A stretch of 10,175 bases of DNA from a virus (Duplodnaviria; Heunggongvirae; Uroviricota; Caudoviricetes). The translations under genes and the position numbers were made by a program. Positions within the stretch are counted from its first letter, which is position 1. Each line of letters starts with the position of its first letter. The notes under the pieces were generated by a model. That model was not told where the DNA came from. It searched no databases and worked only from the letters and a program-made list of their open reading frames with translations. The stretch covers positions 1 through 10,175 of the IMG/VR virus record IMGVR_UViG_2703718840_000003; one strand, 5' to 3'. Of this stretch, positions 1-10,175 are shown in pieces.

Positions 1-2
1 AG

Positions 3-95
3 GCGGAGTTATCCCGCGTGGAGATAGTCGAGCTGCTCAGTCAGGAGTCGGAAAAATTTCACAATATCGGATTGTCTCGCGGGGAGGTGCTTTGA
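3..95 (+). CDS. C-terminal end of an upstream early-operon ORF (partial, starts before the window)
   Basis: Frame 3 is open from the window edge and ends at TGA 93-95 (...[30 protein letters not shown]), overlapping the next ATG at 95 in a TGATG arrangement. Identity not determinable from 31 residues. Confidence 0.4.
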
Positions 96-397
96 TGTCC
101 TGTTCTCGTTCAGTTGTATTACTGAATAACGCCTTAAAAATCACCGTTATGAAAAATGGCGATTTATCTCTTATTCAACTTGGTCTTGATAAAGAAAAAC
201 GCGAAATAACTGAGTCTGTTATCGCGATTTATCAGAACGAATTAAATCTCCTGTCTGATGTGGTCAATTTACTTGTTAAACGCGCTGTATTTCACAAGCA
301 AATCTCCTCCGTGGATGAACTGACGAAATTAACGACAGAAATTGCCAGCTATTGCGCTGATGAATTTAAAAAACTTAACGACAAAAGGAGCTGGTAA
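95..397 (+). CDS. Hypothetical small protein of the P2-type early/replication operon (orf81-like)
   Basis: ATG at 95 preceded by GGAGG at 82-86 (7-nt spacer); the six-frame track starts this ORF at TTG 92, one codon earlier. Stop TAA 395-397 overlaps the next ATG (TAATG). Position and coupling match the orf80-83 block upstream of gene A in P2; function unknown. Confidence 0.65.
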   Translation: MSCSRSVVLLNNALKITVMKNGDLSLIQLGLDKEKREITESVIAIYQNELNLLSDVVNLLVKRAVFHKQISSVDELTKLTTEIASYCADEFKKLNDKRSW

Positions 398-621
398 TGC
401 CGGACAACGTAGATTTTATTCAGGAACAACAGGCTGAATTACTGGAGCGTCAGATTAACGCGGCAAGGGTAAAACATTGCGGTGCTTCTGCGCTGGTTTG
501 CGAAGAGTGTGACGCGCCAATACCTGCTGCCCGTCGTGCGGCTTATCCGTCAGCCACGCGTTGTGTTTCCTGCCAGTCAGTCTTTGAAGCAAAAAACAAA
601 CATTACCGGAGAACGGCATGA
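397..621 (+). CDS. TraR/DksA-family C4 zinc-finger protein (P2 orf82-like)
   Basis: 74 aa with CxxC-(17)-CxxC (CEECDAPIPAARRAAYPSATRCVSCQ) near the C-terminus, typical of TraR/DksA zinc fingers. ATG 397 overlaps the upstream stop; stop TGA 619-621 overlaps the next ATG at 618 (ATGA). Confidence 0.8.
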   Translation: MPDNVDFIQEQQAELLERQINAARVKHCGASALVCEECDAPIPAARRAAYPSATRCVSCQSVFEAKNKHYRRTA

Positions 622-893
622 GTATTCGTATTGAAATTGGCGAACGTTATGTCGTTACCAGTGACAGCTTTCAGTTTATTCTCCACGAGAAAAAGAGAGC
701 GGAAAGCGGTAAAAACGCCGGTCAGGAATGGCTGGCGGTGGTTGGTTATTATCCGAAATTAAGCCAGCTCGTTTCCGGCCTGATGCATCACGATATTCTG
801 ACCGGAAGCGCAAAGTCTTTTGCTGATTTAAACGCGCAGGTTGAGCAACTCAGCAGGCGTTGTTCAGAGGCTTTTGGCTCATATGGCCGTTAA
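618..893 (+). CDS. Hypothetical protein (P2 orf83-like), last small ORF before gene A
   Basis: 91-aa ORF translationally coupled to the preceding gene; its 3' end overlaps the gpA start at 883 by 11 nt. No recognisable catalytic motif. Confidence 0.65.
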   Translation: MSIRIEIGERYVVTSDSFQFILHEKKRAESGKNAGQEWLAVVGYYPKLSQLVSGLMHHDILTGSAKSFADLNAQVEQLSRRCSEAFGSYGR

Positions 894-3156
894 AGCCTCC
901 GGGCGTTTTGTCCCTCCGTCAGCATTTGCTGCAGGCACCGGTAAGGCGTTTACCGGTGCTTATGCATGGAACGCGCCACGCGAGGCCGTCGGGCGCGAAA
1001 GATCCCTTACACGTGACGAGATGCGTCAGGTGCAAGGTGTTTTATCCACGATTAACCGCCTGCCTTACTTTTTGCGCTCGCTGTTTACTTCACGCTATGA
1101 CTACATCCGGCGCAATAAAAGCCCGGTGCACGGGTTTTATTTCCTCACATCCACTTTTCAGCGTCGTTTATGGCCGCGCATTGAGCGTGTGAATCAGCGC
1201 CATGAAATGAACACCGACGCGTCGTTACTGTTTCTGGCAGAGCGTGACCACTATGCTCGCCTGCCGGGAATGAATGACAAGGAGCTGAAAAAGTTTGCTG
1301 CCCGTATCTCATCGCAGCTTTTCATGATGTATGAGGAACTCAGCGATGCCTGGGTGGATGCGCATGGCGAAAAAGAATCGCTGTTTACGGATGAGGCGCA
1401 GGCTCACCTCTATGGTCATGTTGCTGGCGCTGCACGTGCTTTCAATATTTCCCCGCTCTACTGGAAAAAATACCGTAAAGGGCAGATGACCACGAGGCAG
1501 GCATATTCTGCCATTGCCCGTCTGTTTAACGATGAGTGGTGGACTCATCAGCTTAAAGGCCAGCGTATGCGCTGGCATGAAGCGTTACTGATAGCTGTCG
1601 GGGAGGTCAATAAAGACCGTTCTCCTTATGCCAGTAAACACGCCATTCGTGATGTGCGTGCGCGCCGCCAGGCAAATCTGGAATTTCTTAAATCGTGTGA
1701 CCTTGAAAACAGGGAAACCGGCGAGCGCATCGACCTTATCAGTAAGGTGATGGGCAGTATTTCTAATCCTGAAATTCGCCGGATGGAGCTGATGAACACC
1801 ATTGCCGGTATTGAGCGTTACGCCGCCGCAGAGGGTGATGTGGGGATGTTTATCACGCTGACCGCGCCGTCAAAGTATCACCCGACTCGTCAGGTCAGAA
1901 AAGGCGAAAGTAAAACCGTTCAGCTTAATCACGGCTGGAACGATGAGGCATTTAATCCAAAGGATGCGCAGCGTTATCTCTGCCGCATCTGGAGCCTGAT
2001 GCGCACGGCATTCAAGGATAATGATTTACAGGTCTACGGTTTGCGTGTCGTCGAGCCACACCACGACGGAACGCCGCACTGGCATATGATGCTTTTTTGT
2101 AATCCACGCCAGCGTAACCAGATTATCGAAATCATGCGTCGCTATGCGCTCAAAGAGGATGGTGACGAAAGAGGAGCCGCGCGAAACCGTTTTCAGGCAA
2201 AGCACCTTAACCGGGGCGGTGCTGCGGGATATATCGCGAAATACATTTCAAAAAATATCGACGGCTATGCACTGGATGGTCAGCTCGATAACGATACCGG
2301 TAAGCCGCTTAAAGATACTGCCGCGGCTGTTACCGCATGGGCGTCAACGTGGCGCATCCCGCAATTTAAAACGGTTGGACTGCCGACAATGGGGGCTTAC
2401 CGTGAACTACGCAAATTGCCTCGCGGCGTCAGTATTGCTGATGAGTTTGACGAACGCGTCGAGGCTGCTCGCGCTGCCGCAGACAGTGGTGATTTTGCGT
2501 TGTATATCAGCGCGCAGGGTGGGGCAAATGTCCCGCGCGATTGTCAGACTGTCAGGGTTGCCCGTAGCCCGTCGGATGACGTTAACGAGTACGAGGAAGA
2601 AGTCGGGAGAGTGGTCGGCATTTACGCGCCGCATCTCGGCGCGCGTCATATTCATATCACCAGAACGACGGACTGGCGCATTGTGCCGAAAGTTCCGGTC
2701 GTGGAGCCTTTGACTTTAAAAAGCGGCATCGCCGCGCCTCGGAGTCCTGTCAATAACTGTGGAAAGCTCACCGGTGGTGATACTTCGTTACCGGCTCCCA
2801 CGCCTTCTGAGCACGCCGCAGCAGTGCTTAATCTGGTTGATGACGGTGTTATCGAATGGAATGACCCGGAGGTCGTGAGGGCGCTCAGAAGCGCATTAAA
2901 ACACGGCCTGAGAAGACCAAACCGTCAGCAAAGAAACGGAAGCCCGTTAAAACTGCATGAAATAGCGCCATCGGCCAGACTTACCCGGTCGGAACGAATG
3001 CAAATTACCCGTATCCGCGTTGACCTTGCTCAGAACGGTATCAGGCCGCAGCGATGGGAGCTTGAGGCGCTGGCGCGTGGGGCAACCGTAAATTATGACG
3101 GGAAAAAATTCACGTATCCGATTGCTGAAGAGTGGTCGGGATTTTCCTCAAACTAA
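883..3156 (+). CDS. A: Rolling-circle replication initiation endonuclease gpA (HUH superfamily)
   Basis: 757-aa ORF from ATG 883 (the track's 841 start is an upstream in-frame TTG). Contains HUH motif HWH (nt 2077-2085, VEPHHDGTPHWHMMLF) and paired tyrosines YIAKY at residues 450/454 (nt 2230-2244), matching the recalled P2 gpA active-site tyrosines. N-terminus MAVKASGRFVPPSAF matches recalled P2 A. Stop TAA 3154-3156. Confidence 0.93.
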   Translation: MAVKASGRFVPPSAFAAGTGKAFTGAYAWNAPREAVGRERSLTRDEMRQVQGVLSTINRLPYFLRSLFTSRYDYIRRNKSPVHGFYFLTSTFQRRLWPRIERVNQRHEMNTDASLLFLAERDHYARLPGMNDKELKKFAARISSQLFMMYEELSDAWVDAHGEKESLFTDEAQAHLYGHVAGAARAFNISPLYWKKYRKGQMTTRQAYSAIARLFNDEWWTHQLKGQRMRWHEALLIAVGEVNKDRSPYASKHAIRDVRARRQANLEFLKSCDLENRETGERIDLISKVMGSISNPEIRRMELMNTIAGIERYAAAEGDVGMFITLTAPSKYHPTRQVRKGESKTVQLNHGWNDEAFNPKDAQRYLCRIWSLMRTAFKDNDLQVYGLRVVEPHHDGTPHWHMMLFCNPRQRNQIIEIMRRYALKEDGDERGAARNRFQAKHLNRGGAAGYIAKYISKNIDGYALDGQLDNDTGKPLKDTAAAVTAWASTWRIPQFKTVGLPTMGAYRELRKLPRGVSIADEFDERVEAARAAADSGDFALYISAQGGANVPRDCQTVRVARSPSDDVNEYEEEVGRVVGIYAPHLGARHIHITRTTDWRIVPKVPVVEPLTLKSGIAAPRSPVNNCGKLTGGDTSLPAPTPSEHAAAVLNLVDDGVIEWNDPEVVRALRSALKHGLRRPNRQQRNGSPLKLHEIAPSARLTRSERMQITRIRVDLAQNGIRPQRWELEALARGATVNYDGKKFTYPIAEEWSGFSSN

Positions 3157-3328
3157 TAATGATGTTTGACAAAGAGATGTTGATGAGACTAAAAATTTTA
3201 TTTGTCTGTATAACCATTCGGTTAGAGTACAATAGTTCCGAGTGATAGGAATACAAATAATGACTAAGTTTTCAACATGCGATTATTATGGGTTGAATTA
3301 AAGGTAAATAACTATGTTAAATAATATA

Positions 3329-3361
3329 GGGCAAGAGGGTGTTCTTGCCCTTTGTTTATTT
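3329..3361. terminator. Intrinsic terminator hairpin, probably bidirectional
   Basis: Perfect 8-bp stem GGGCAAGA (3329-3336) / TCTTGCCC (3343-3350) with 6-nt loop, followed on plus by TTTGTTTATTT and on minus by TATATTATTT. Lies immediately 3' of the minus-strand SIR2 gene stop (3360-3362) and about 170 nt 3' of gene A. Confidence 0.6.
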
Positions 3362-5954
3362 AAGCGGCGATTTCAATGTTGCTTTTATATTTTAAGAGGG
3401 CGTTTTTGGGAACTGCTGGCCAGGCTGAGTATCTATAATAGTTCATATAATCTTTCTCTATCAGTGTTTTTAGCTGTTTGTTAGCTTGAACTTCATCGCC
3501 AAGTAAAAAGAATGCACACATGGCCGTAGCCCCTTTTGAATTGTTATGTGCTAAAACTGAATTTATCTCATTCTTTTTAATGTCTTGCCCTTCTTTTTTC
3601 TTGGCAACTTCTCTATTGATTATTAAAACATCTTTTTCCCTGTAATCTTTAATTTTTTCAAGGTTTTCATTAGCGATTTTAATTGTTTCTTTATAGTTTC
3701 CTGCAAGAAGATTGGTATAAGATTTTCCTAAGATATAATCACTAAACCCGTAACCTTTTTCATAAGCTTCATCAAGAAGAACTATCGCTTTATCATAATC
3801 GCCGTTTAAAGATGCAATATCAGATTTTAATTTTAAAATGGTGATTTCTGATTTGTTTCTTGGCAGGCTATCAATAAACTCCTCTGCCAATTTGATGTTG
3901 TTTTTATCAATTAGTAATATGTCTACAATACTGTTTGTATGATTATTTTTCCACGGGCAGTTCATGGCTTCTTTGACTAATTCAATACCAGCTTTGATGT
4001 CCCTGTTGCAGCCTATCTCATATCGAGCTTTAAATATAATGAAAGGAGCAATTCTTGCAATGTCGCTCTCTTCTTCATATTTATCAATAAAGCCTTTCAT
4101 CAGGTTGGGAGTGTTTTCATCGAAGTCTGTTTCAAATAAAGATAGATGCAGTTGTGTTAAATATTTTAATATGTTTCTTTTTTTATTTTTTGATGATGTT
4201 TTGTAAGCGTTGGATAATGTATCTATGCATAATAATGTATCTTCTTTCTTTTGCAATGCGCAGGTGAAATCAGTATATAACGACAAATATGTATCGTGAG
4301 TAGGGTTGACCTCTTTTATTTTGTCAAGCAGTTCTTGTATTAATTTATTACAATCTTTCTTATCATGGCTTGATTGATGTTTTGTCTTTATTGCGTCATA
4401 TTTTATTCTCCATGCAATATTATCCAGATCACTGCTTTGGAGTAAGCTTTTATCAATTAAATCATGTATTTCATCAAAGGTTATTAATTCTTCATCATTA
4501 TTTTCTAGATGTAGAATAGCAATTCTGCTTAAATGATTCTTAAGATTTATGCTATATGGGAATTTTTCAAGCAATCCCTTAAGGTAATGTATTTTTGCCT
4601 TTAGATCTGTGAATATGTTTGCCCTTGAAAGGGCGTAATTTATATTAAATTCATCAAGAGCTATAAGATTATCACTAATTTCTAATGCTGACTTTGTGTC
4701 TTTTTGTTCTTCTTTTATTTCAATTAGCCTACGCAGATATTTAGACTTTATATTGTCACTATCAGCGTTATTGATTAATTCATTCAGTTTTGACTCTGCG
4801 TTTAAATAATTTTTATTTCTAATGAGGTTGTCAATGTATAACAAATTCTTAAAATCTTCTTCGGGGATCTTTTGATCGTCTAAATCACTTTGGGATAGCT
4901 CGTTTATTAATGACGATATGTCATGTGTTAGAGTGTGTTTTTTTAATTTTGAGAGGTCAGATTTGATAATGCCATTTTTAGATAAGTTGTACTCATCTGT
5001 TATAAAGTTTTGGATCATCATCTCTCTTTTTGTGGATTTTTGATTCCCTCCAAAAGAGAGTGCGCAGCCTAATTCTAGGGCTAGTTCTGCCATCAATTCA
5101 TCAAAACCTTCTATTTCTACCCAATAAACTTTATCTTGACCTAGAAGCCTAATAAGTTCTGGTGGGATGGAGTCATTTTTTCTAACGCACCAGTATACTC
5201 CATTTCTTAGGTAATCGTCCTGTTTTAATAAATGTTTTAAAACATCCATGATAGAGCTGTCATTGCCAGCATAACCAACAAAAATAATCCCGTATTCTTT
5301 AGTGAATTCAGTTAGTTTTTCACGAGTGTTACCTTCTAATGACTCGGTTTCTTTTAAAGAGCTTTTTATGCTATCAAATAAATAATCACCATGTAATTTT
5401 ATTATTTTTGGCCTTGAAGAAGTAATTGAGACGCCTTTAATTGATGAATCATGTGCACATAATAATGGTCTGTCAGAAGAAAATTGATAAAATGCTTCAT
5501 TTATTAAATCGTCAAAATTTGTTGTGAAGACAGTATCAAAAAACTTTGATTCAAATAGTTCAACGAGATAAGCATATCCAATTGAAGGTAATTTTTTGTC
5601 TACTTGAAGCTCAACAAATCTTCTGCGTTGAGATGGAAGATCAAATTTCTTTTCAAAAAGAGATGAGTATTCATTGTTTGGGTCGTACCAGACTGGATGG
5701 TTTTTGGATAGCCATTTTTTAGCTTCTTCGGCATCGACATATTCTTGATTAGATAGTCTTGTGTATATCTCTTCTCTCCATTTCGCTACTAACTCTTGAC
5801 CAGTTTTTATTCCAGATGTAACGGATGCGCCAGCACCAAGAAAAAGTGAATAGTTAGGTGATGTACCTGATTTGATTTTTATATAATCAGCTAAATCTTT
5901 AACGGTTCTTTTTTTGGCAACCAGTTGTTCCTTGGTAGTATCACGATCAGACAT
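3360..5954 (-). CDS. SIR2-like (sirtuin-fold NADase) domain protein with a large C-terminal alpha-helical/TPR-like domain; candidate single-gene anti-phage defence protein
   Basis: 864-aa minus-strand ORF, ATG at 5954-5952, stop TAA at 3362-3360. N-terminal about 300 aa carry SIR2 hallmarks: glycine-rich loop SLFLGAGASVTSG (res 37-48, nt 5811-5846), TTNFDDL with Asn146 (nt 5517-5519) and KLHGD with His188 (nt 5391-5393), an Asn-His spacing of 42. The remaining roughly 560 aa are K/N/I/E/D-rich, helix-like, with TPR-like stretches (e.g. GDYDKAIVLLDEAYEKGYGFSDYILGKSY). Strongly AT-rich codon usage unlike the flanks. Confidence 0.85.
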   Translation of the reverse strand: MSDRDTTKEQLVAKKRTVKDLADYIKIKSGTSPNYSLFLGAGASVTSGIKTGQELVAKWREEIYTRLSNQEYVDAEEAKKWLSKNHPVWYDPNNEYSSLFEKKFDLPSQRRRFVELQVDKKLPSIGYAYLVELFESKFFDTVFTTNFDDLINEAFYQFSSDRPLLCAHDSSIKGVSITSSRPKIIKLHGDYLFDSIKSSLKETESLEGNTREKLTEFTKEYGIIFVGYAGNDSSIMDVLKHLLKQDDYLRNGVYWCVRKNDSIPPELIRLLGQDKVYWVEIEGFDELMAELALELGCALSFGGNQKSTKREMMIQNFITDEYNLSKNGIIKSDLSKLKKHTLTHDISSLINELSQSDLDDQKIPEEDFKNLLYIDNLIRNKNYLNAESKLNELINNADSDNIKSKYLRRLIEIKEEQKDTKSALEISDNLIALDEFNINYALSRANIFTDLKAKIHYLKGLLEKFPYSINLKNHLSRIAILHLENNDEELITFDEIHDLIDKSLLQSSDLDNIAWRIKYDAIKTKHQSSHDKKDCNKLIQELLDKIKEVNPTHDTYLSLYTDFTCALQKKEDTLLCIDTLSNAYKTSSKNKKRNILKYLTQLHLSLFETDFDENTPNLMKGFIDKYEEESDIARIAPFIIFKARYEIGCNRDIKAGIELVKEAMNCPWKNNHTNSIVDILLIDKNNIKLAEEFIDSLPRNKSEITILKLKSDIASLNGDYDKAIVLLDEAYEKGYGFSDYILGKSYTNLLAGNYKETIKIANENLEKIKDYREKDVLIINREVAKKKEGQDIKKNEINSVLAHNNSKGATAMCAFFLLGDEVQANKQLKTLIEKDYMNYYRYSAWPAVPKNALLKYKSNIEIAA

Positions 5955-5957
5955 TTT

Positions 5958-5963
5958 CCCTCC
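5958..5963 (-). promoter_or_regulatory. Shine-Dalgarno sequence of the SIR2-domain gene
   Basis: Minus strand reads TATGGAGGGAAA-ATG; GGAGGG (plus-strand ccctcc at 5958-5963) sits 3-4 nt upstream of the ATG. Confidence 0.55.
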
Positions 5964-6266
5964 ATAAATTATGTGTGAGAAGTGAGAATAATCCTAGGTG
6001 CGGTTATTTTTACATGAAATTCAATGGGTTTTCGTTTTTCTTACATGCGTTTTGTGACTGAGATCAAGCTATGAGGGAGGAATGTTCTTTTATTGTTCGC
6101 TAGAGGCTAATTGGCTAATAAGCTTTTACTAATCGTTTATGATGTACCATAGCGTTGAATGATTTTGCATGCATTTGTCAGATGTTTACTGATGTTGTTA
6201 TGTCAGAGCTGGTGCGCTTTAGGTTATTTCATGCAACTGCATTAAAACCACCACATGAAGCGGGCG

Positions 6267-6285
6267 GGCGAGGCGGGGAAAGCAC
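6267..6285. other. Putative cos cohesive-end sequence of the P2/186 family
   Basis: GGCGAGGCGGGGAAAGCAC at 6267-6285 matches, from memory, the 19-nt cohesive end shared by P2, 186 and P4. It lies between the accessory island and portal gene Q, where cos sits in an integrated P2 genome. Not verified by search. Confidence 0.55.
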
Positions 6286-6427
6286 TGCGCGCTGGCGGTG
6301 GTGCTGATTTTATTTTTTCAGCGTCTGAGCGCGTCGTGATGGCGTTTAGATTGTGCGCCGGGGTGTTGGTGTGTCTGCGGGATGTTTTGTGCGGTGGTGA
6401 GCGTGTGAGGGCGTGATGACGGGGTGT

Positions 6428-6449
6428 AAAAAAGCCGCCCGCAGGCGGC
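6428..6449 (-). terminator. Intrinsic terminator downstream of portal gene Q (end of the leftward P-Q transcript)
   Basis: Stem GCCGCC (6434-6439) / GGCGGC (6444-6449) with 4-nt loop, preceded on plus by A6 (6428-6433), giving hairpin plus U6 on the minus-strand transcript 5 nt after the Q stop (6455-6457). Confidence 0.55.
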
Positions 6450-6454
6450 GATGT

Positions 6455-7489
6455 TCAGCCGTTGTCAGTGTCCAGTGAGTAGTTTTTAAAGCGGATGACC
6501 TCCTGACCGAGCCAGCCGTTTATCTCGCGGATCCTGTCCTGTAACGGGATAAGCTCATTGCGGACAAAGACCTTTGCCACTTTCTCAATATCACCCAGCG
6601 ACCCGACGTTCTCCGGCTTGCCGCCCATCAACTGAAAGGGGATGCGGTGCGCGTCCAGCAGGTCTGCGGCACTGGCTTTTTTGATATTAAAAAAATCGTC
6701 CTTCGTCGCCACTTCACTGAGCGGGATAATTTTAATGCCGTCGGCTTTCCCTTGTGGGGCATAGAGAAACAGATTTTTAAAGTTGTTGCGGCCTTTCGAC
6801 TTCACCATGTTTTCGCGAAGCATTTCGATATCGTTGCGATCCTGCACGGCATCGGTGACGTACATGATGTATCCGGCATGTGCGCCGTTTTCGTAATACT
6901 TGCGGCGGAACAGCGTGGCCGATTCATTCAGCCAGGCAGAGTTAAGGGCGCTGAGATATTCCGGCAGGCCGTACAGCTCCTGATTAATATCCGGCTCCAG
7001 CAGGTGAAACACGGAGCCGGGTGCGAAGGCTGTCGGCTCGTTGAAGGACGGCACCCACCAGTAAACATCCTCTTCCACGCCACGGCGGGTATATTTTGCC
7101 GGTGAGGTTTCCAGTCTGATGACCTTACCGGTGGTGCTGTAACGCTTTTCCAGAAACGCATTACCGAACACCAGAAAATCCAGCACAAAGCGGCTGAAAT
7201 CCTGCTGGGAAAGCCACGGATGCGGGATAAATGTCGAGGCCAGAATATTGCGTTTGACGTAAATCGGGGAGCTGTGATGCACGGCAGCACGCAGGCTTTT
7301 TGCCAGACCGGTAAAGCTGACCGGTGGCTCATACCATCTGCCGTTACTGATGCACTCAACGTAATCCAGAATGTCACGGCGGTCGAGTACCGGCACCGGC
7401 TCGCCAAAGGTGAATGCTTCCATTTTCGGGGCGCTGGCGGTCATTGTTTTTGCCGCAGGTCGCGGTGTTTTCCCTTTTTTCTTGCTCAT
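6455..7489 (-). CDS. Q: Portal (capsid vertex) protein gpQ
   Basis: 344-aa minus-strand ORF, the length recalled for P2 gpQ; placed between cos and the terminase gene as in P2. Start ATG 7489-7487 overlaps the stop of the upstream terminase ORF (TGATG on the minus strand). Confidence 0.88.
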   Translation of the reverse strand: MSKKKGKTPRPAAKTMTASAPKMEAFTFGEPVPVLDRRDILDYVECISNGRWYEPPVSFTGLAKSLRAAVHHSSPIYVKRNILASTFIPHPWLSQQDFSRFVLDFLVFGNAFLEKRYSTTGKVIRLETSPAKYTRRGVEEDVYWWVPSFNEPTAFAPGSVFHLLEPDINQELYGLPEYLSALNSAWLNESATLFRRKYYENGAHAGYIMYVTDAVQDRNDIEMLRENMVKSKGRNNFKNLFLYAPQGKADGIKIIPLSEVATKDDFFNIKKASAADLLDAHRIPFQLMGGKPENVGSLGDIEKVAKVFVRNELIPLQDRIREINGWLGQEVIRFKNYSLDTDNG

Positions 7490-8100
7490 CAGTAAAACTC
7501 CAGAATGGTGGATGTCAGCGGGGTGCTGATACCGGCGGTGAGTGGCTCATTTAACAGGGCGTGCATGGTCGCCCAGGCGAGGTCGGCGTGGCTGGCTTCC
7601 TCGCTGCGGCTGGCCTCATAGGTGGCACTGCGTCCGCTGCTGGTCATGGTCTTGCGGATAGCCATAAACGAGCTGGTGATGTCGGTGGCGCTGACGTCAT
7701 ATTCCAGACAGCCACGGCGGATAACGTCTTTTGCCTTGAGCACCATTGCGGTTTTCATTTCCGGCGTGTAGCGGATATCGCGCGCGGCGGGATAGAACGA
7801 GCGCACGAGCTGGAACACGCCGACACCGAGGCCGGTGGCATCAATCCCGATGTATTCAACGTTATATTTTTCGGTGAGTTTGCGGATGGATTCCGCCTGG
7901 GTGGCAAAGTCCATGCCTTTCCACTGGTGACGCTCAAGTATTCTGAATTTGCCACCGGCCACCACCGGCGGTGCCAGCACCACGCATCCGGCGCTGTCGC
8001 CACGGTGTGACGGGTCGTAACCAATCCATACCGGGCGGGAGCCGAACGGATTGGCGGCAAACGGCGCATAGTCTTCCCATTCTTCCAGCGTGTCGACCAT
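7489..8100 (-). pseudogene. P: Terminase large (ATPase) subunit gpP, C-terminal nuclease-domain fragment only
   Basis: 203-aa minus ORF with an RNase-H-like terminase nuclease signature (VWIGYDPSHRGDSAGCVVLA, YIGIDATGLG, HADLAWATMHAL). P2 gpP is recalled as about 590 aa with an N-terminal ATPase domain; here the frame upstream of Met 8100 runs straight into antisense of the capsid gene, so no Walker A/B region is present. Confidence 0.7.
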
Positions 8101-8106
8101 GCAGCG

Positions 8107-9141
8107 TTGCAGCTCCTCGAACTGAACGGCATCGACGCCGGTGATGTGTCGAAAAAATTCACCGTTGAACCGTCGGTCACCCAGACCCTGATGAACACCA
8201 TGCAGGAGTCCTCTGATTTTCTGACCCGCATCAACATTGTGCCGGTCAGCGAAATGAAAGGGGAAAAAATTGGTATTGGTGTCACCGGCTCCATCGCCAG
8301 CACCACCGACACCGCCGGTGGCACCGAGCGTCAGCCGAAGGACTTCTCGAAGCTGGCGTCAAACAAGTACGAATGCGACCAGATTAACTTCGATTTTTAT
8401 ATCCGCTACAAAACGCTTGACCTGTGGGCGCGTTATCAGGATTTCCAGCTCCGTATCCGTAACGCCATTATCAAACGCCAGTCCCTTGATTTCATCATGG
8501 CCGGTTTTAACGGCGTGAAGCGTGCCGAAACCTCTGACCGCAGCAGCAATCCGATGCTGCAGGATGTGGCGGTCGGCTGGCTGCAGAAATACCGCAATGA
8601 AGCCCCGGCGCGCGTGATGAGCAAGGTTACTGACGAGGAAGGTCACACCACCTCTGAGGTCATCCGCGTGGGTAAGGGCGGTGATTATGCCAGCCTCGAT
8701 GCACTGGTGATGGATGCGACCAACAACCTGATTGAGCCGTGGTATCAGGAAGACCCTGACCTTGTGGTGATTGTGGGGCGTCAGCTACTGGCGGACAAGT
8801 ATTTCCCCATCGTCAACAGGGAGCAGGACAACAGCGAAATGCTGGCCGCTGACGTCATCATCAGCCAGAAACGCATCGGTAACCTGCCGGCGGTACGCGT
8901 CCCGTACTTCCCGGCGGATGCGATGCTCATCACGAAGCTGGAAAACCTGTCCATCTACTACATGGATGACAGCCATCGCCGCGTGATTGAGGAAAACCCG
9001 AAACTCGACCGCGTGGAGAACTACGAGTCAATGAACATTGATTACGTGGTGGAAGACTACGCCGCCGGTTGTCTGGTGGAAAAAATTAAGGTCGGTGATT
9101 TCTCCACACCGGCTAAAGCGACCGCAGAGCCGGGAGCGTAA
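8107..9141 (+). CDS. N: Major capsid protein gpN, apparently 5'-truncated at a junction with the P fragment
   Basis: 344 aa from TTG 8107 to stop TAA 9139-9141; recognised as P2-type major capsid protein (recalled full length 357 aa). No upstream ATG/GTG and no SD; the in-frame sequence upstream is antisense of P. The native start and roughly the first 13-17 codons appear missing. Confidence 0.8.
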   Translation: MQLLELNGIDAGDVSKKFTVEPSVTQTLMNTMQESSDFLTRINIVPVSEMKGEKIGIGVTGSIASTTDTAGGTERQPKDFSKLASNKYECDQINFDFYIRYKTLDLWARYQDFQLRIRNAIIKRQSLDFIMAGFNGVKRAETSDRSSNPMLQDVAVGWLQKYRNEAPARVMSKVTDEEGHTTSEVIRVGKGGDYASLDALVMDATNNLIEPWYQEDPDLVVIVGRQLLADKYFPIVNREQDNSEMLAADVIISQKRIGNLPAVRVPYFPADAMLITKLENLSIYYMDDSHRRVIEENPKLDRVENYESMNIDYVVEDYAAGCLVEKIKVGDFSTPAKATAEPGA

Positions 9142-9144
9142 CCG

Positions 9145-9888
9145 ATGACGAGTCCCGCACAGCGCCACATGATGCGGGTCTCGGCAGCGATGACCGCGCA
9201 GCGGGAAGCCTCCCCGCTGCGACATGCAACTGTCTATGAGCAGATGCTGGTTAAGCTGGCCGCAGACCAGCGCACACTGAAAGCGATTTATTCAAAAGAG
9301 CTGAAGGCCGCAAAAAAACGCGAACTGCTGCCGTTCTGGTTGCCGTGGGTGAACGGCGTGCTGGAGCAGGGCAAAGGTGCACAGGATGACATTCTGATGA
9401 CGGTCATGCTGTGGCGTCTGGATACCGGCGATATTGCCGGTGCGCTGGAGATTGCCCGTTATGCCCTGAAGTACGGTCTGACCATGCCGGGTAAACACCG
9501 CCGTACCCCGCCGTACATGTTCACCGAGGAGGTGGCGCTCGCGGCCATGCGCGCTCACGCTGCCGGTGAGTCTGTGGATACCCGCCTGCTGACGGAGACC
9601 CTTGAACTGACCGCCACGGCTGACATGCCTGATGAAGTGCGCGCAAAGCTGCACAAAATTACCGGTCTGTTTCTGCGTGACGGTGGTGATGCCGCCGGTG
9701 CGCTGGCGCACCTGCAACGTGCGACACAGCTCGACTGTCAGGCAGGCGTCAAAAAAGAGATTGAACGACTGGAGCGGGAGCTGAAACCGAAGCCGGAGCC
9801 GCAGCCAAAAGCGGCCACCCGCGCCCCGCATAAGACCCGGAGCGTGACACCGGCAAAACGTGGACGCCCGAAAAAGAAAGCCAGTTAA
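9145..9888 (+). CDS. M: Terminase small (endonuclease) subunit gpM
   Basis: 247-aa ORF, ATG 9145 three nt after the N stop, stop TAA 9886-9888. Length and position match P2 gpM; basic C-terminal tail (KRGRPKKKAS). Confidence 0.88.
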   Translation: MTSPAQRHMMRVSAAMTAQREASPLRHATVYEQMLVKLAADQRTLKAIYSKELKAAKKRELLPFWLPWVNGVLEQGKGAQDDILMTVMLWRLDTGDIAGALEIARYALKYGLTMPGKHRRTPPYMFTEEVALAAMRAHAAGESVDTRLLTETLELTATADMPDEVRAKLHKITGLFLRDGGDAAGALAHLQRATQLDCQAGVKKEIERLERELKPKPEPQPKAATRAPHKTRSVTPAKRGRPKKKAS

Positions 9889-9987
9889 CAACCGAATGCG
9901 CCCCGCGCCAGGGCGGCACGCCGGTCAGTGAGGGTGAATCACCTGACACTGCACCGGCGTCCACCGCCCGACTTTTCAGAGGTAGTC

Positions 9988-10175
9988 ATGATGACGCTGA
10001 TTATTCCGCGAAAGGAGGCTCCCGTGTCCGGTGAGGGTACGGTGGTCATCCCGCAACCGGCAGGCGACGAGCCGGTGATTAAAAACACGTTCTTTTTTCC
10101 CGATATCGACCCGAAGCGCGTCCGGGAACGTATGCGCCTTGAGCAGACCGTCGCCCCCGCCCGTCTGCGTGAGGC
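9988..10175 (+). CDS. L: Head completion/stabilisation protein gpL, N-terminal part (runs off the window)
   Basis: ATG 9988 (MMTLIIPRKEAPVSGEGTVVIPQPAGDEPVIKNTFFFPDIDPKRVRERMRLEQT...) preceded by AGAGGT at 9977-9982; open to the window end. Position after M matches P2 gene order O-N-M-L. Confidence 0.8.
   Translation, partial: MMTLIIPRKEAPVSGEGTVVIPQPAGDEPVIKNTFFFPDIDPKRVRERMRLEQTVAPARLRE

Follow-up and report, generated by a model that had tools for sequence, protein, structure and literature searches.

The gpA-gpQ locus of the window

The DNA analysed here, referred to as the window, is a stretch of 10,175 nucleotides (nt), which comprises positions 1 to 10,175 of the virus record IMGVR_UViG_2703718840_000003 (Caudoviricetes) and represents a P2-like prophage of Escherichia coli. 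Between the gene of the replication endonuclease gpA and the cohesive end site cos, it contains an AT-rich segment with a single gene, which codes for a protein with an N-terminal SIR2 domain and a predicted C-terminal alpha-solenoid. Taken as a whole, the segment is probably cargo of a published hotspot of P2-like phages that encodes a stand-alone anti-phage protein of the SIR2-solenoid NADase type. Positions 3000-6450 of the window share 99.7% identity with E. coli LR-46; for the flanks of the segment, the identity to many Peduovirus genomes is approximately 97%.

The borders of the segment were determined by means of BLASTN. Homology to the P2 reference genome (NC_001895) covers positions 349-3146, ends approximately 10 nt short of the gpA stop codon (3156), and resumes at position 6238, 29 nt to the left of the cohesive end. 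In P2, the same interval contains 3.2 kb with orf91, tin, and old; the alignment places the segment between gpA and cos and thus in the position of these genes, as had been proposed in the initial annotation. Compared to a P2-like phage that carries cdtABC, the breakpoints are located at 3143 and 6197; compared to a P2-like phage with Dcm and ParaMORC3, they are located at 3171 and 6232. The junctions of the island are thus mosaic on a scale of some tens of bases. The initial annotation had delimited the island to positions 3157-6140, which agrees with the alignments except for the right edge: The true boundary lies at 6197-6237, i.e. 60-100 nt further to the right. Direct or inverted repeats flanking the segment were looked for and not found, and no RNA family from Rfam matched the segment. 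These findings fit recombination in the conserved end of gpA and in the cos/Q region and argue against transposition.

The GC content of the segment between the homology breakpoints (3147-6237) is 0.324, compared to 0.512 in the left flank (1-3146) and 0.573 in the right flank (6238-10175); for the narrower interval 3157-6140, it is 0.322. In a sliding analysis, GC content is 0.54-0.56 at 2800-3100, drops to 0.33 by 3101-3300, stays at 0.28-0.38 up to approximately 6200, and reaches 0.55 by 6201-6400. The sharp drop after the gpA stop codon and the recovery before cos, which had been noticed in a few sampled blocks, are therefore borne out along the complete segment. Non-overlapping windows of 100 nt gave a mean of 0.324 and a maximum of 0.42 for the island, and a mean of 0.552 and a minimum of 0.43 for the flanks (Mann-Whitney p = 3e-15). 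The GC content at third codon positions is 0.27 in the island gene, 0.55 in gpA, and 0.66 in gpQ.

Rousset et al. (2022, Cell Host Microbe, PMC9122126) described the locus between gpA and gpQ beside cos as a hotspot of variable content in P2-like phages. Its 18,150 occurrences in E. coli were assigned to 1,650 gene arrangements with 169 systems, among them validated defence systems, in which the hotspot is enriched (PMC9122126). The window shares with this hotspot the locus, the flanks, the variable AT-rich content, and the short single- or few-gene system that is typical of it; at the level of the locus there is no difference. The content of the slot varies among near-identical phages: P2-like relatives with approximately 97% identical flanks carry unrelated cargo, namely cdtABC, Dcm and ParaMORC3, Fic/VbhT, a reverse transcriptase, DUF4238, DUF4209, or ParB-N. 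The alternative that the segment belongs to the conserved phage core was checked in 5,426 complete E. coli genomes. The cargo was found in only 19 of them, whereas the flanks were matched in 2,176, so the segment is not core sequence. No full-length homolog of the cargo protein was found in 50,697 phage genome records. It is nearly certain that the island is horizontally exchanged cargo, which was swapped via the conserved flanks of the gpA-cos-gpQ hotspot, and the exchange at a fixed phage locus that the initial annotation had suspected is thereby supported. The locus is already explained by the published hotspot and contains nothing new in itself.

The cargo has been catalogued before. Table S5A of PMC9122126 contains an arrangement consisting of 'SIR2_2' alone, with the entries WP_061357923 and WP_124831363. 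WP_061357923 is the protein of LR-46, and the window protein is identical to it in sequence (dN = 0). For comparison, a set of five E. coli alleles residing in the same P2 slot was compiled; the DNA identities of the four others to the window are 99.7%, 93%, 86%, and 78%. WP_124831363 corresponds to the 86% allele.

The gene has the island to itself. Only one long open reading frame (ORF) exists there, the other ORFs listed inside the island being short (at most 80 amino acids, aa), and the annotation pipeline PGAP calls just the 864-aa gene in this segment of near-identical E. coli chromosomes; the earlier description of a single-gene island is thus correct. The same holds for the terminator hairpin on its left side, for which an intrinsic terminator is predicted on either strand. 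The gpA unit and the SIR2 gene converge on this GC-rich hairpin, which is located 9 nt past the stop codon of the SIR2 gene and whose stem is kept in the 93%, 86%, and 78% alleles. Upstream of the gene, a Shine-Dalgarno sequence (GGAGGG at 5958-5963, minus strand) precedes the ATG by 3 nt. Within the upstream region, which is inherited together with the gene, several blocks are invariant even in the 78% allele, e.g. ATGCATGCAAAATCATTCAAC and TGATCTCAGTCACAAAACGC; they could be parts of an unusual promoter or binding sites of a regulator. The features of the locus and of the protein are listed in Table 1. For gpA, the mechanically determined ORF begins with TTG at 841, the start equivalent to that of PGAP is given, and the gene product is named 'replication endonuclease' in the annotation of an E. 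coli locus (L001).

Table 1. Features of the SIR2-solenoid cargo, the hotspot, and the adjacent phage genes.
Feature	Position	Strand	Evidence and remarks
Variable AT-rich cargo segment, 32% GC, in place of P2 orf91-tin-old	3147..6237	none	BLASTN breakpoints versus P2 NC_001895 and two other P2-like phages; composition
Single cargo gene, 864 aa, SIR2-solenoid protein (= WP_061357923)	3360..5954	-	ORF and translation; Pfam SIR2_2, E 4e-15
SIR2 (SIRim-type) Rossmann domain, residues ~30-297	5064..5867	-	GAGxS 40-44, Asn146, His188, Asp232
Predicted helical linker, residues ~300-365	4860..5057	-	AlphaFold2 helices 308-354, pLDDT dip 351-360; conservation 0.60
Predicted TPR-like alpha-solenoid, residues ~366-856, presumed sensor	3387..4859	-	Most variable stretch 521-745
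Bidirectional intrinsic-terminator hairpin	3328..3351	none	Stems of 10 bp and 9 bp, each with a T-rich tail; terminator score on either strand
Upstream untranslated/regulatory region, co-inherited with the gene	5955..6237	-	Alignable, with conserved blocks in the 93%, 86%, and 78% alleles
gpA replication endonuclease, left conserved flank	883..3156	+	Pfam Phage_GPA, E 1e-122; 97% identical to P2 gpA
Cohesive end cos GGCGAGGCGGGGAAAGCAC, start of right conserved flank	6267..6285	+	Matches cosR/cosL of NC_001895; 19 nt
Terminator tQ of gpQ	6434-6449		Terminator scan; P2 annotation
gpQ portal gene, right conserved flank	6455..7489	-	Pfam Phage_portal; 99% identical to P2-like gpQ
Remaining gpP fragment, 203 aa	7489-8100	-	Only the Terminase_6C nuclease domain

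Domain composition and comparison with named SIR2 defence systems

The N-terminal part of the window protein matches the Pfam family SIR2_2 (PF13289) at residues 141-261 with an E-value of 4e-15 and a score of 56.6 bits, compared to a cutoff of 24.5. For the C-terminus, Pfam gave only a tetratricopeptide repeat (TPR) match below threshold, and NCBIfam gave no match to the protein. The best matches in PADLOC are the SIR2 modules of proteins that are partners of short prokaryotic Argonautes (pAgo); they have an E-value of 2e-59 and cover residues ~33-293, in one model up to ~381. A sequence search in the PDB found only the SIR2-APAZ protein of SPARSA (8jkz/8in8), which aligns with residues 33-297. 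The corresponding E-value is 1e-23 for the single sequence and 4e-29 for a profile of 40 sequences.

In 40 full-length homologs (38-77% identity), the GAGxS motif at residues 40-44, Asn146 in TTNFDD, His188 in KLHGDY, and Asp232 in GYAGND are invariant. The codons of Asn146 and His188 are located at 5517-5519 and 5391-5393, respectively. The conserved residues align with the same motifs of the SPARSA SIR2 domain, and they correspond to the NAD-binding loop and to the Asn/His pair that was mutated for the inactivation of DSR2 (H171A in PDB titles). Based on established knowledge of SIR2 NADases, we take residues of the Asn146/His188 type to be catalytic. The protein contains neither a zinc-ribbon cysteine cluster nor a Walker A motif. 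With a profile match above the curated threshold, a Rossmann fold, the GAGxS motif, and an Asn and a His of the catalytic type, but no zinc ribbon, the domain is of the SIRim type.

An AlphaFold2 model based on the 40-sequence alignment has a mean predicted local distance difference test (pLDDT) value of 84.7. In this model, residues 365-856 form a solenoid of approximately 30 uninterrupted helices, for which pLDDT is mostly above 90. A Foldseek search of the PDB ranked the SPARSA SIR2 domain first for the N-terminal domain, followed by DSR2, which matched across the whole chain (E ~1e-8, template-modelling (TM) score ~0.2). In a viral structure library, nothing was found below an E-value of 1e-3.

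The SIR2 domain of SPARSA is thus the closest to that of the window protein by sequence and by fold, and the catalytic-type residues align. In contrast to the SPARSA protein, the window protein has no APAZ domain, as the matches end at residues ~293-381, and its C-terminus is predicted to be an alpha-solenoid. Furthermore, no pAgo gene lies beside the window gene, whose neighbours are gpA and gpQ. In the absence of APAZ and pAgo, sensing by the window protein would be based on protein repeats and not on a guide nucleic acid.

Across the whole chain, the closest structure in the PDB is that of DSR2 from Bacillus subtilis, although the TM score of this match is only ~0.2. According to the model, both proteins consist of a single chain in which an N-terminal domain of the SIR2 NADase type is followed by a middle region and, at the C-terminus, by a long alpha-solenoid. 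The trigger of DSR2 is the phage tail tube protein, which is sensed via the DSR2 solenoid; the inhibitor of DSR2 is DSAD1. At the level of sequence, phmmer and hmmsearch detected no DSR2 chain in the PDB at E-values up to 10, and there was no match to the Dsr2 model of PADLOC. DSR2 is also longer (~1,000 aa versus 864 aa), and the SIR2 domain of the window protein belongs to a different, pAgo-associated clade.

Dsr1 (EcDsr1, WP_029488749.1), which occurs in E. coli, resembles the window protein in being a single-protein SIR2 effector joined to a TPR-type sensor without a STAND NTPase. The PADLOC model PDLC04166 (1,227 positions) gave no match at E-values up to 10; as a control, the same model detected another SIR2 protein. 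EcDsr1 has a bilobed TPR sensor of the Avs7 type, with which it detects the major capsid protein of the phage as its trigger (PMC13581612). The Avs7/Dsr1 sensor comprises ~960 aa and is common to 9,097 proteins with many effectors, STAND included (PMC13581612). In contrast, the sensor of the window protein comprises ~490-560 aa and is joined only to SIR2 among the matches listed. A profile of the sensor alone found only SIR2-fused proteins of ~850-930 aa, and no long or STAND protein is among the best 150 matches; HMMER is less far-reaching here than the 10-16 rounds of PSI-BLAST used in PMC13581612. The TPR sensors of the window protein and of Dsr1/Avs7 may be very distantly related.

Other systems differ more clearly. 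Avs5 is a SIR2-STAND protein, whereas the window protein lacks a Walker A motif and has no NTPase match in Pfam or PADLOC. SIR2-HerA (Nezha) and Thoeris ThsA are distinguished by the single-gene locus, which contains no HerA and no ThsB, and by the lack of a SLOG or Macro domain. The PADLOC candidate PDC-S65 matches only the SIR2 part (residues 34-343, E 7e-26, 310 of 592 profile positions) and not the full length.

A defence protein with this domain composition could also act without bulk depletion of NAD+, i.e. by ADP-ribosylating a phage or host target, or by depleting NAD+ transiently without killing the cell. SirTM-type sirtuins ADP-ribosylate targets. For DSR1, transient NAD+ depletion without cell death has been reported. 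However, the closest relatives of the window protein by sequence and fold are all NADase effectors of defence systems, and neither a zinc ribbon nor a feature of a substrate-peptide site, which are typical of protein-modifying sirtuins, is present. A mode of action without bulk depletion is therefore unlikely, and an NADase-type effector is the preferred interpretation of the SIR2 domain.

Distribution, alleles, and selection

A word-indexed search yielded 1,734 relatives of the window protein. The best 120 of these are nearly all 860-890 aa long, are matched with 98-100% query coverage, and are named just 'SIR2 family protein'; they originate from Enterobacterales, Aeromonas, Vibrio, Shewanella, and Pseudoalteromonas. 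When species-representative genomes were scanned, further full-length matches came from Pseudomonas, Acinetobacter, Betaproteobacteria, Bacteroidota, Verrucomicrobiota, and one metagenome-assembled genome of Firmicutes. Elsewhere, the gene is mostly chromosomal and solitary. For example, housekeeping genes surround a lone inserted copy in Aeromonas, Cedecea, Citrobacter, and Klebsiella, and one full-length copy is located on a Pantoea plasmid. A P2 context is rare: Weak or partial matches to gpA or gpQ were found near only 3 of 80 loci. A partner gene was not found either. In 49 loci with a near-full-length match, no family of neighbouring ORFs occurs in more than four, and the recurring ones are generic.

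Three viral or phage-like elements contain parts related to the SIR2 domain. In two 'PE' phage-like elements of Vibrio cyclitrophicus (PQ189330.1, 1770-3080; PQ189367.1, 12116-13039), the identity of the SIR2 part is 39-47%, and the match to PQ189330.1 runs into the first part of the solenoid, up to query residue 437. A protein of the archaeal Haloferax virus Halfgib1 (MW344766.1, 13377-14186), annotated as a TPR protein, matches the SIR2 part with 33% identity.

On a contig of Klebsiella aerogenes (L095, 6133-13708), a homolog lies between a helix-turn-helix/transposase fragment and genes of insertion sequences (IS; rve, IS110-type). A DUF4238 gene is located approximately 3 kb from this homolog, and DUF4238 is the family of a validated defence system of the P2 hotspot (Rousset et al., PMC9122126). 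The region lies inside an apparent array of orphan toxins of contact-dependent inhibition (Fil_haemagg/DUF637, DUF596). The locus looks like a small defence islet outside a phage.

The distribution of the solenoid was determined with a solenoid-only profile, which matched 308 proteins at E-values up to 1e-3 among 1.84 billion cluster representatives. Among the best 150 of these, every complete protein comprises 840-930 aa, with the solenoid at residues ~305-860. Seven shorter matches still have 90-190 residues ahead of the solenoid; Pfam identified a cut SIR2 domain in five of the seven and no domain in the other two. Fusion of the solenoid to other effectors was considered and rejected, as none of the shorter matches contains a different effector domain. 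Among the best 150 matches listed, the solenoid is fused only to SIR2 and is thus private to the family. The SIR2-solenoid family is coherent, widespread, and so far unnamed, and the cargo is of the kind expected for the hotspot.

The five alleles of the P2 slot are all intact, have exactly 864 codons, and show pairwise dN/dS values (ratios of nonsynonymous to synonymous divergence) of 0.04-0.24. The gene is under purifying selection, which does not act evenly on its parts: dN of the solenoid is 2.5-3 times that of the SIR2 domain. The mean conservation in the 40-sequence alignment is 0.79 for the SIR2 domain, decreases through the linker (Table 1) to 0.50 for residues 366-520 and 0.41 for residues 521-745, and is 0.52 for residues 746-856. 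Synonymous divergence among the alleles reaches more than 1.5 per site, and the flanking phage genes are approximately 97% identical. Such highly diverged alleles between similar flanks indicate that diverged versions have replaced the cargo repeatedly or that the polymorphism is old, and not that the cargo was acquired just once. In the 78% allele (E. coli ATCC 43886, L092, 401-1045), the P2-type end of gpA is followed by the start of orf91 (MAKIHEVKLH...), and approximately 370 nt of additional sequence precede the SIR2 terminator. This arrangement is the remnant of an earlier cargo that contained orf91, and it shows that the left endpoint of recombination varies.

In all 14 hosts that were checked (e.g. 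loci L004, L006, L021, L032), the GC content of the gene is 11-33 percentage points below that of the host; in Aeromonas, for example, the values are 0.32 and 0.65. AT-richness is therefore a stable trait of the family and not the mark of a recent donor of low GC content. It could persist as a consequence of continual transfer or of selection, e.g. by xenogeneic silencing.

The prophage of the window is defective. At a junction at 8100-8140 (affecting 7489-9141), approximately 2.27 kb are absent relative to intact P2-like phages; the terminase gpP lacks its ATPase part, the capsid gpN lacks approximately its first dozen codons, and the scaffold gpO is missing altogether. The homology blocks overlap by 22 nt (8118-8139), and in the alignment there is just a short microhomology at the crossover. 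The junction was found in none of the 5,426 complete E. coli genomes, which leaves a private deletion or an artefact of assembly as its explanation.

The cargo has been retained although most of gpP, the complete gpO, and the beginning of gpN are gone from the prophage, which would agree with an addiction or maintenance toxin stabilising the defective prophage, or with an inactive, passive remnant. No conserved antitoxin-like partner accompanies the gene, however, and the same gene is kept at non-prophage chromosomal sites in other genera. A remnant is furthermore at odds with five intact alleles of equal length and low dN/dS. Purifying selection and the missing partner gene together leave little room for this alternative, which we consider very improbable. 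They are in agreement with a functional protein that acts on its own, as assumed for the SIR2-solenoid protein in the following.

Proposed function of the SIR2-solenoid protein

SIR2 domains deplete NAD+ in DSR1, DSR2, SIR2/pAgo, and SIR2-HerA (Garb et al.). A defence function of the window protein is suggested by a SIR2 domain of the defence type in which the catalytic-type residues are intact, a faster-evolving repeat domain, and the absence of partner genes, as well as by the residence in a hotspot rich in defence systems and by a patchy, mobile, and AT-rich distribution. The following mechanism, in which NADase activity, protein sensing, and a defence phenotype are modelled on DSR2 and Dsr1, appears the most likely one. 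In an uninfected lysogen, the SIR2 enzyme would be held inactive. Upon superinfection, the solenoid would bind a protein of the incoming phage, and binding would relieve autoinhibition or drive oligomerisation. The SIR2 domain would then hydrolyse cellular NAD+, and the depletion of NAD+ would abort the infection and protect the population that carries the prophage. The evidence for such a single-protein system of abortive infection by NAD+ depletion is circumstantial but consistent, and we regard NADase-based defence as likely.

Several observations weigh against this interpretation. The protein does not belong to any named SIR2 defence system according to hidden Markov model or sequence matches, so that the mechanism rests on analogy. 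A search of the accessible literature found no characterisation of, or experiment on, the SIR2-solenoid family. Rousset et al. catalogued the cargo, yet it is absent from the systems that they cloned and tested (PMC9122126). The sole single-gene SIR2 system that was tested from these hotspots, pFR88, is listed under 'additional tested systems' and not with the validated ones (PMC9122126). Expression is a further point. The initial annotation had assigned the gene a ribosome-binding site and a promoter of its own; the former exists, but a consensus sigma-70 scan of 5955-6237 gave no site on the minus (coding) strand, and promoter-like sites are overall no commoner than in shuffled sequence. The promoter of the SIR2 gene is thus a presumed one, and as the prophage is defective, expression of the cargo gene in this particular host is hypothetical.

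An identity of pFR88 with the window protein was considered and rejected: pFR88 originates from a P4 hotspot and matches the PDC-S25 and ThsA models, and its similarity to the window protein is limited to 150 aa of the SIR2 core with ~26% identity.

Not all cargo of the hotspot is defensive, as is illustrated by the cdt toxin and by plasmid-partition genes (PMC9122126), and cdtABC occupies the slot in one of the relatives analysed here. The SIR2-solenoid protein might accordingly be a factor of lysogenic conversion, regulation, or virulence that modifies host proteins or metabolism and does not act against phages. Yet its SIR2_2/SIRim-type domain is of the type found in antiphage proteins, and the combination with a repeat sensor, the faster evolution of the C-terminus, the patchy spread across phyla, and the lasting AT-richness are typical of defence genes. 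The Klebsiella homolog, which has IS elements and a gene of the validated defence family DUF4238 as neighbours, also speaks against a conversion factor. This alternative thus appears even less probable than a defence protein without bulk NAD+ depletion, and an NAD+-depleting anti-phage protein is preferred.

A more far-reaching proposal is that the family represents a third independent lineage of 'defence-associated sirtuins', in which a SIR2 domain of the Argonaute clade no longer serves nucleic-acid sensing and is instead coupled to a private solenoid that senses a novel phage-protein trigger. In P2-like prophages, it would function in superinfection exclusion, and the alleles in the slot (dS >1.5) would differ in trigger specificity. 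We put this forward tentatively, as a possibility that is more doubtful than not.

The SIR2-solenoid protein is a compact single-gene SIR2-sensor protein that is widely distributed and named by no defence catalogue, and the cargo of the window is a self-contained 3.1-kb E. coli cassette. If active, the protein would be a further NAD+-depleting immune sensor with a recognition domain of its own. The slot would then offer a natural allelic series in one genomic position, with identities from 99% to 78%, for the mapping of trigger specificity. Furthermore, an active protein would mean that a protein-repeat sensor can take the place of Argonaute in driving a SIR2 effector of the pAgo type.

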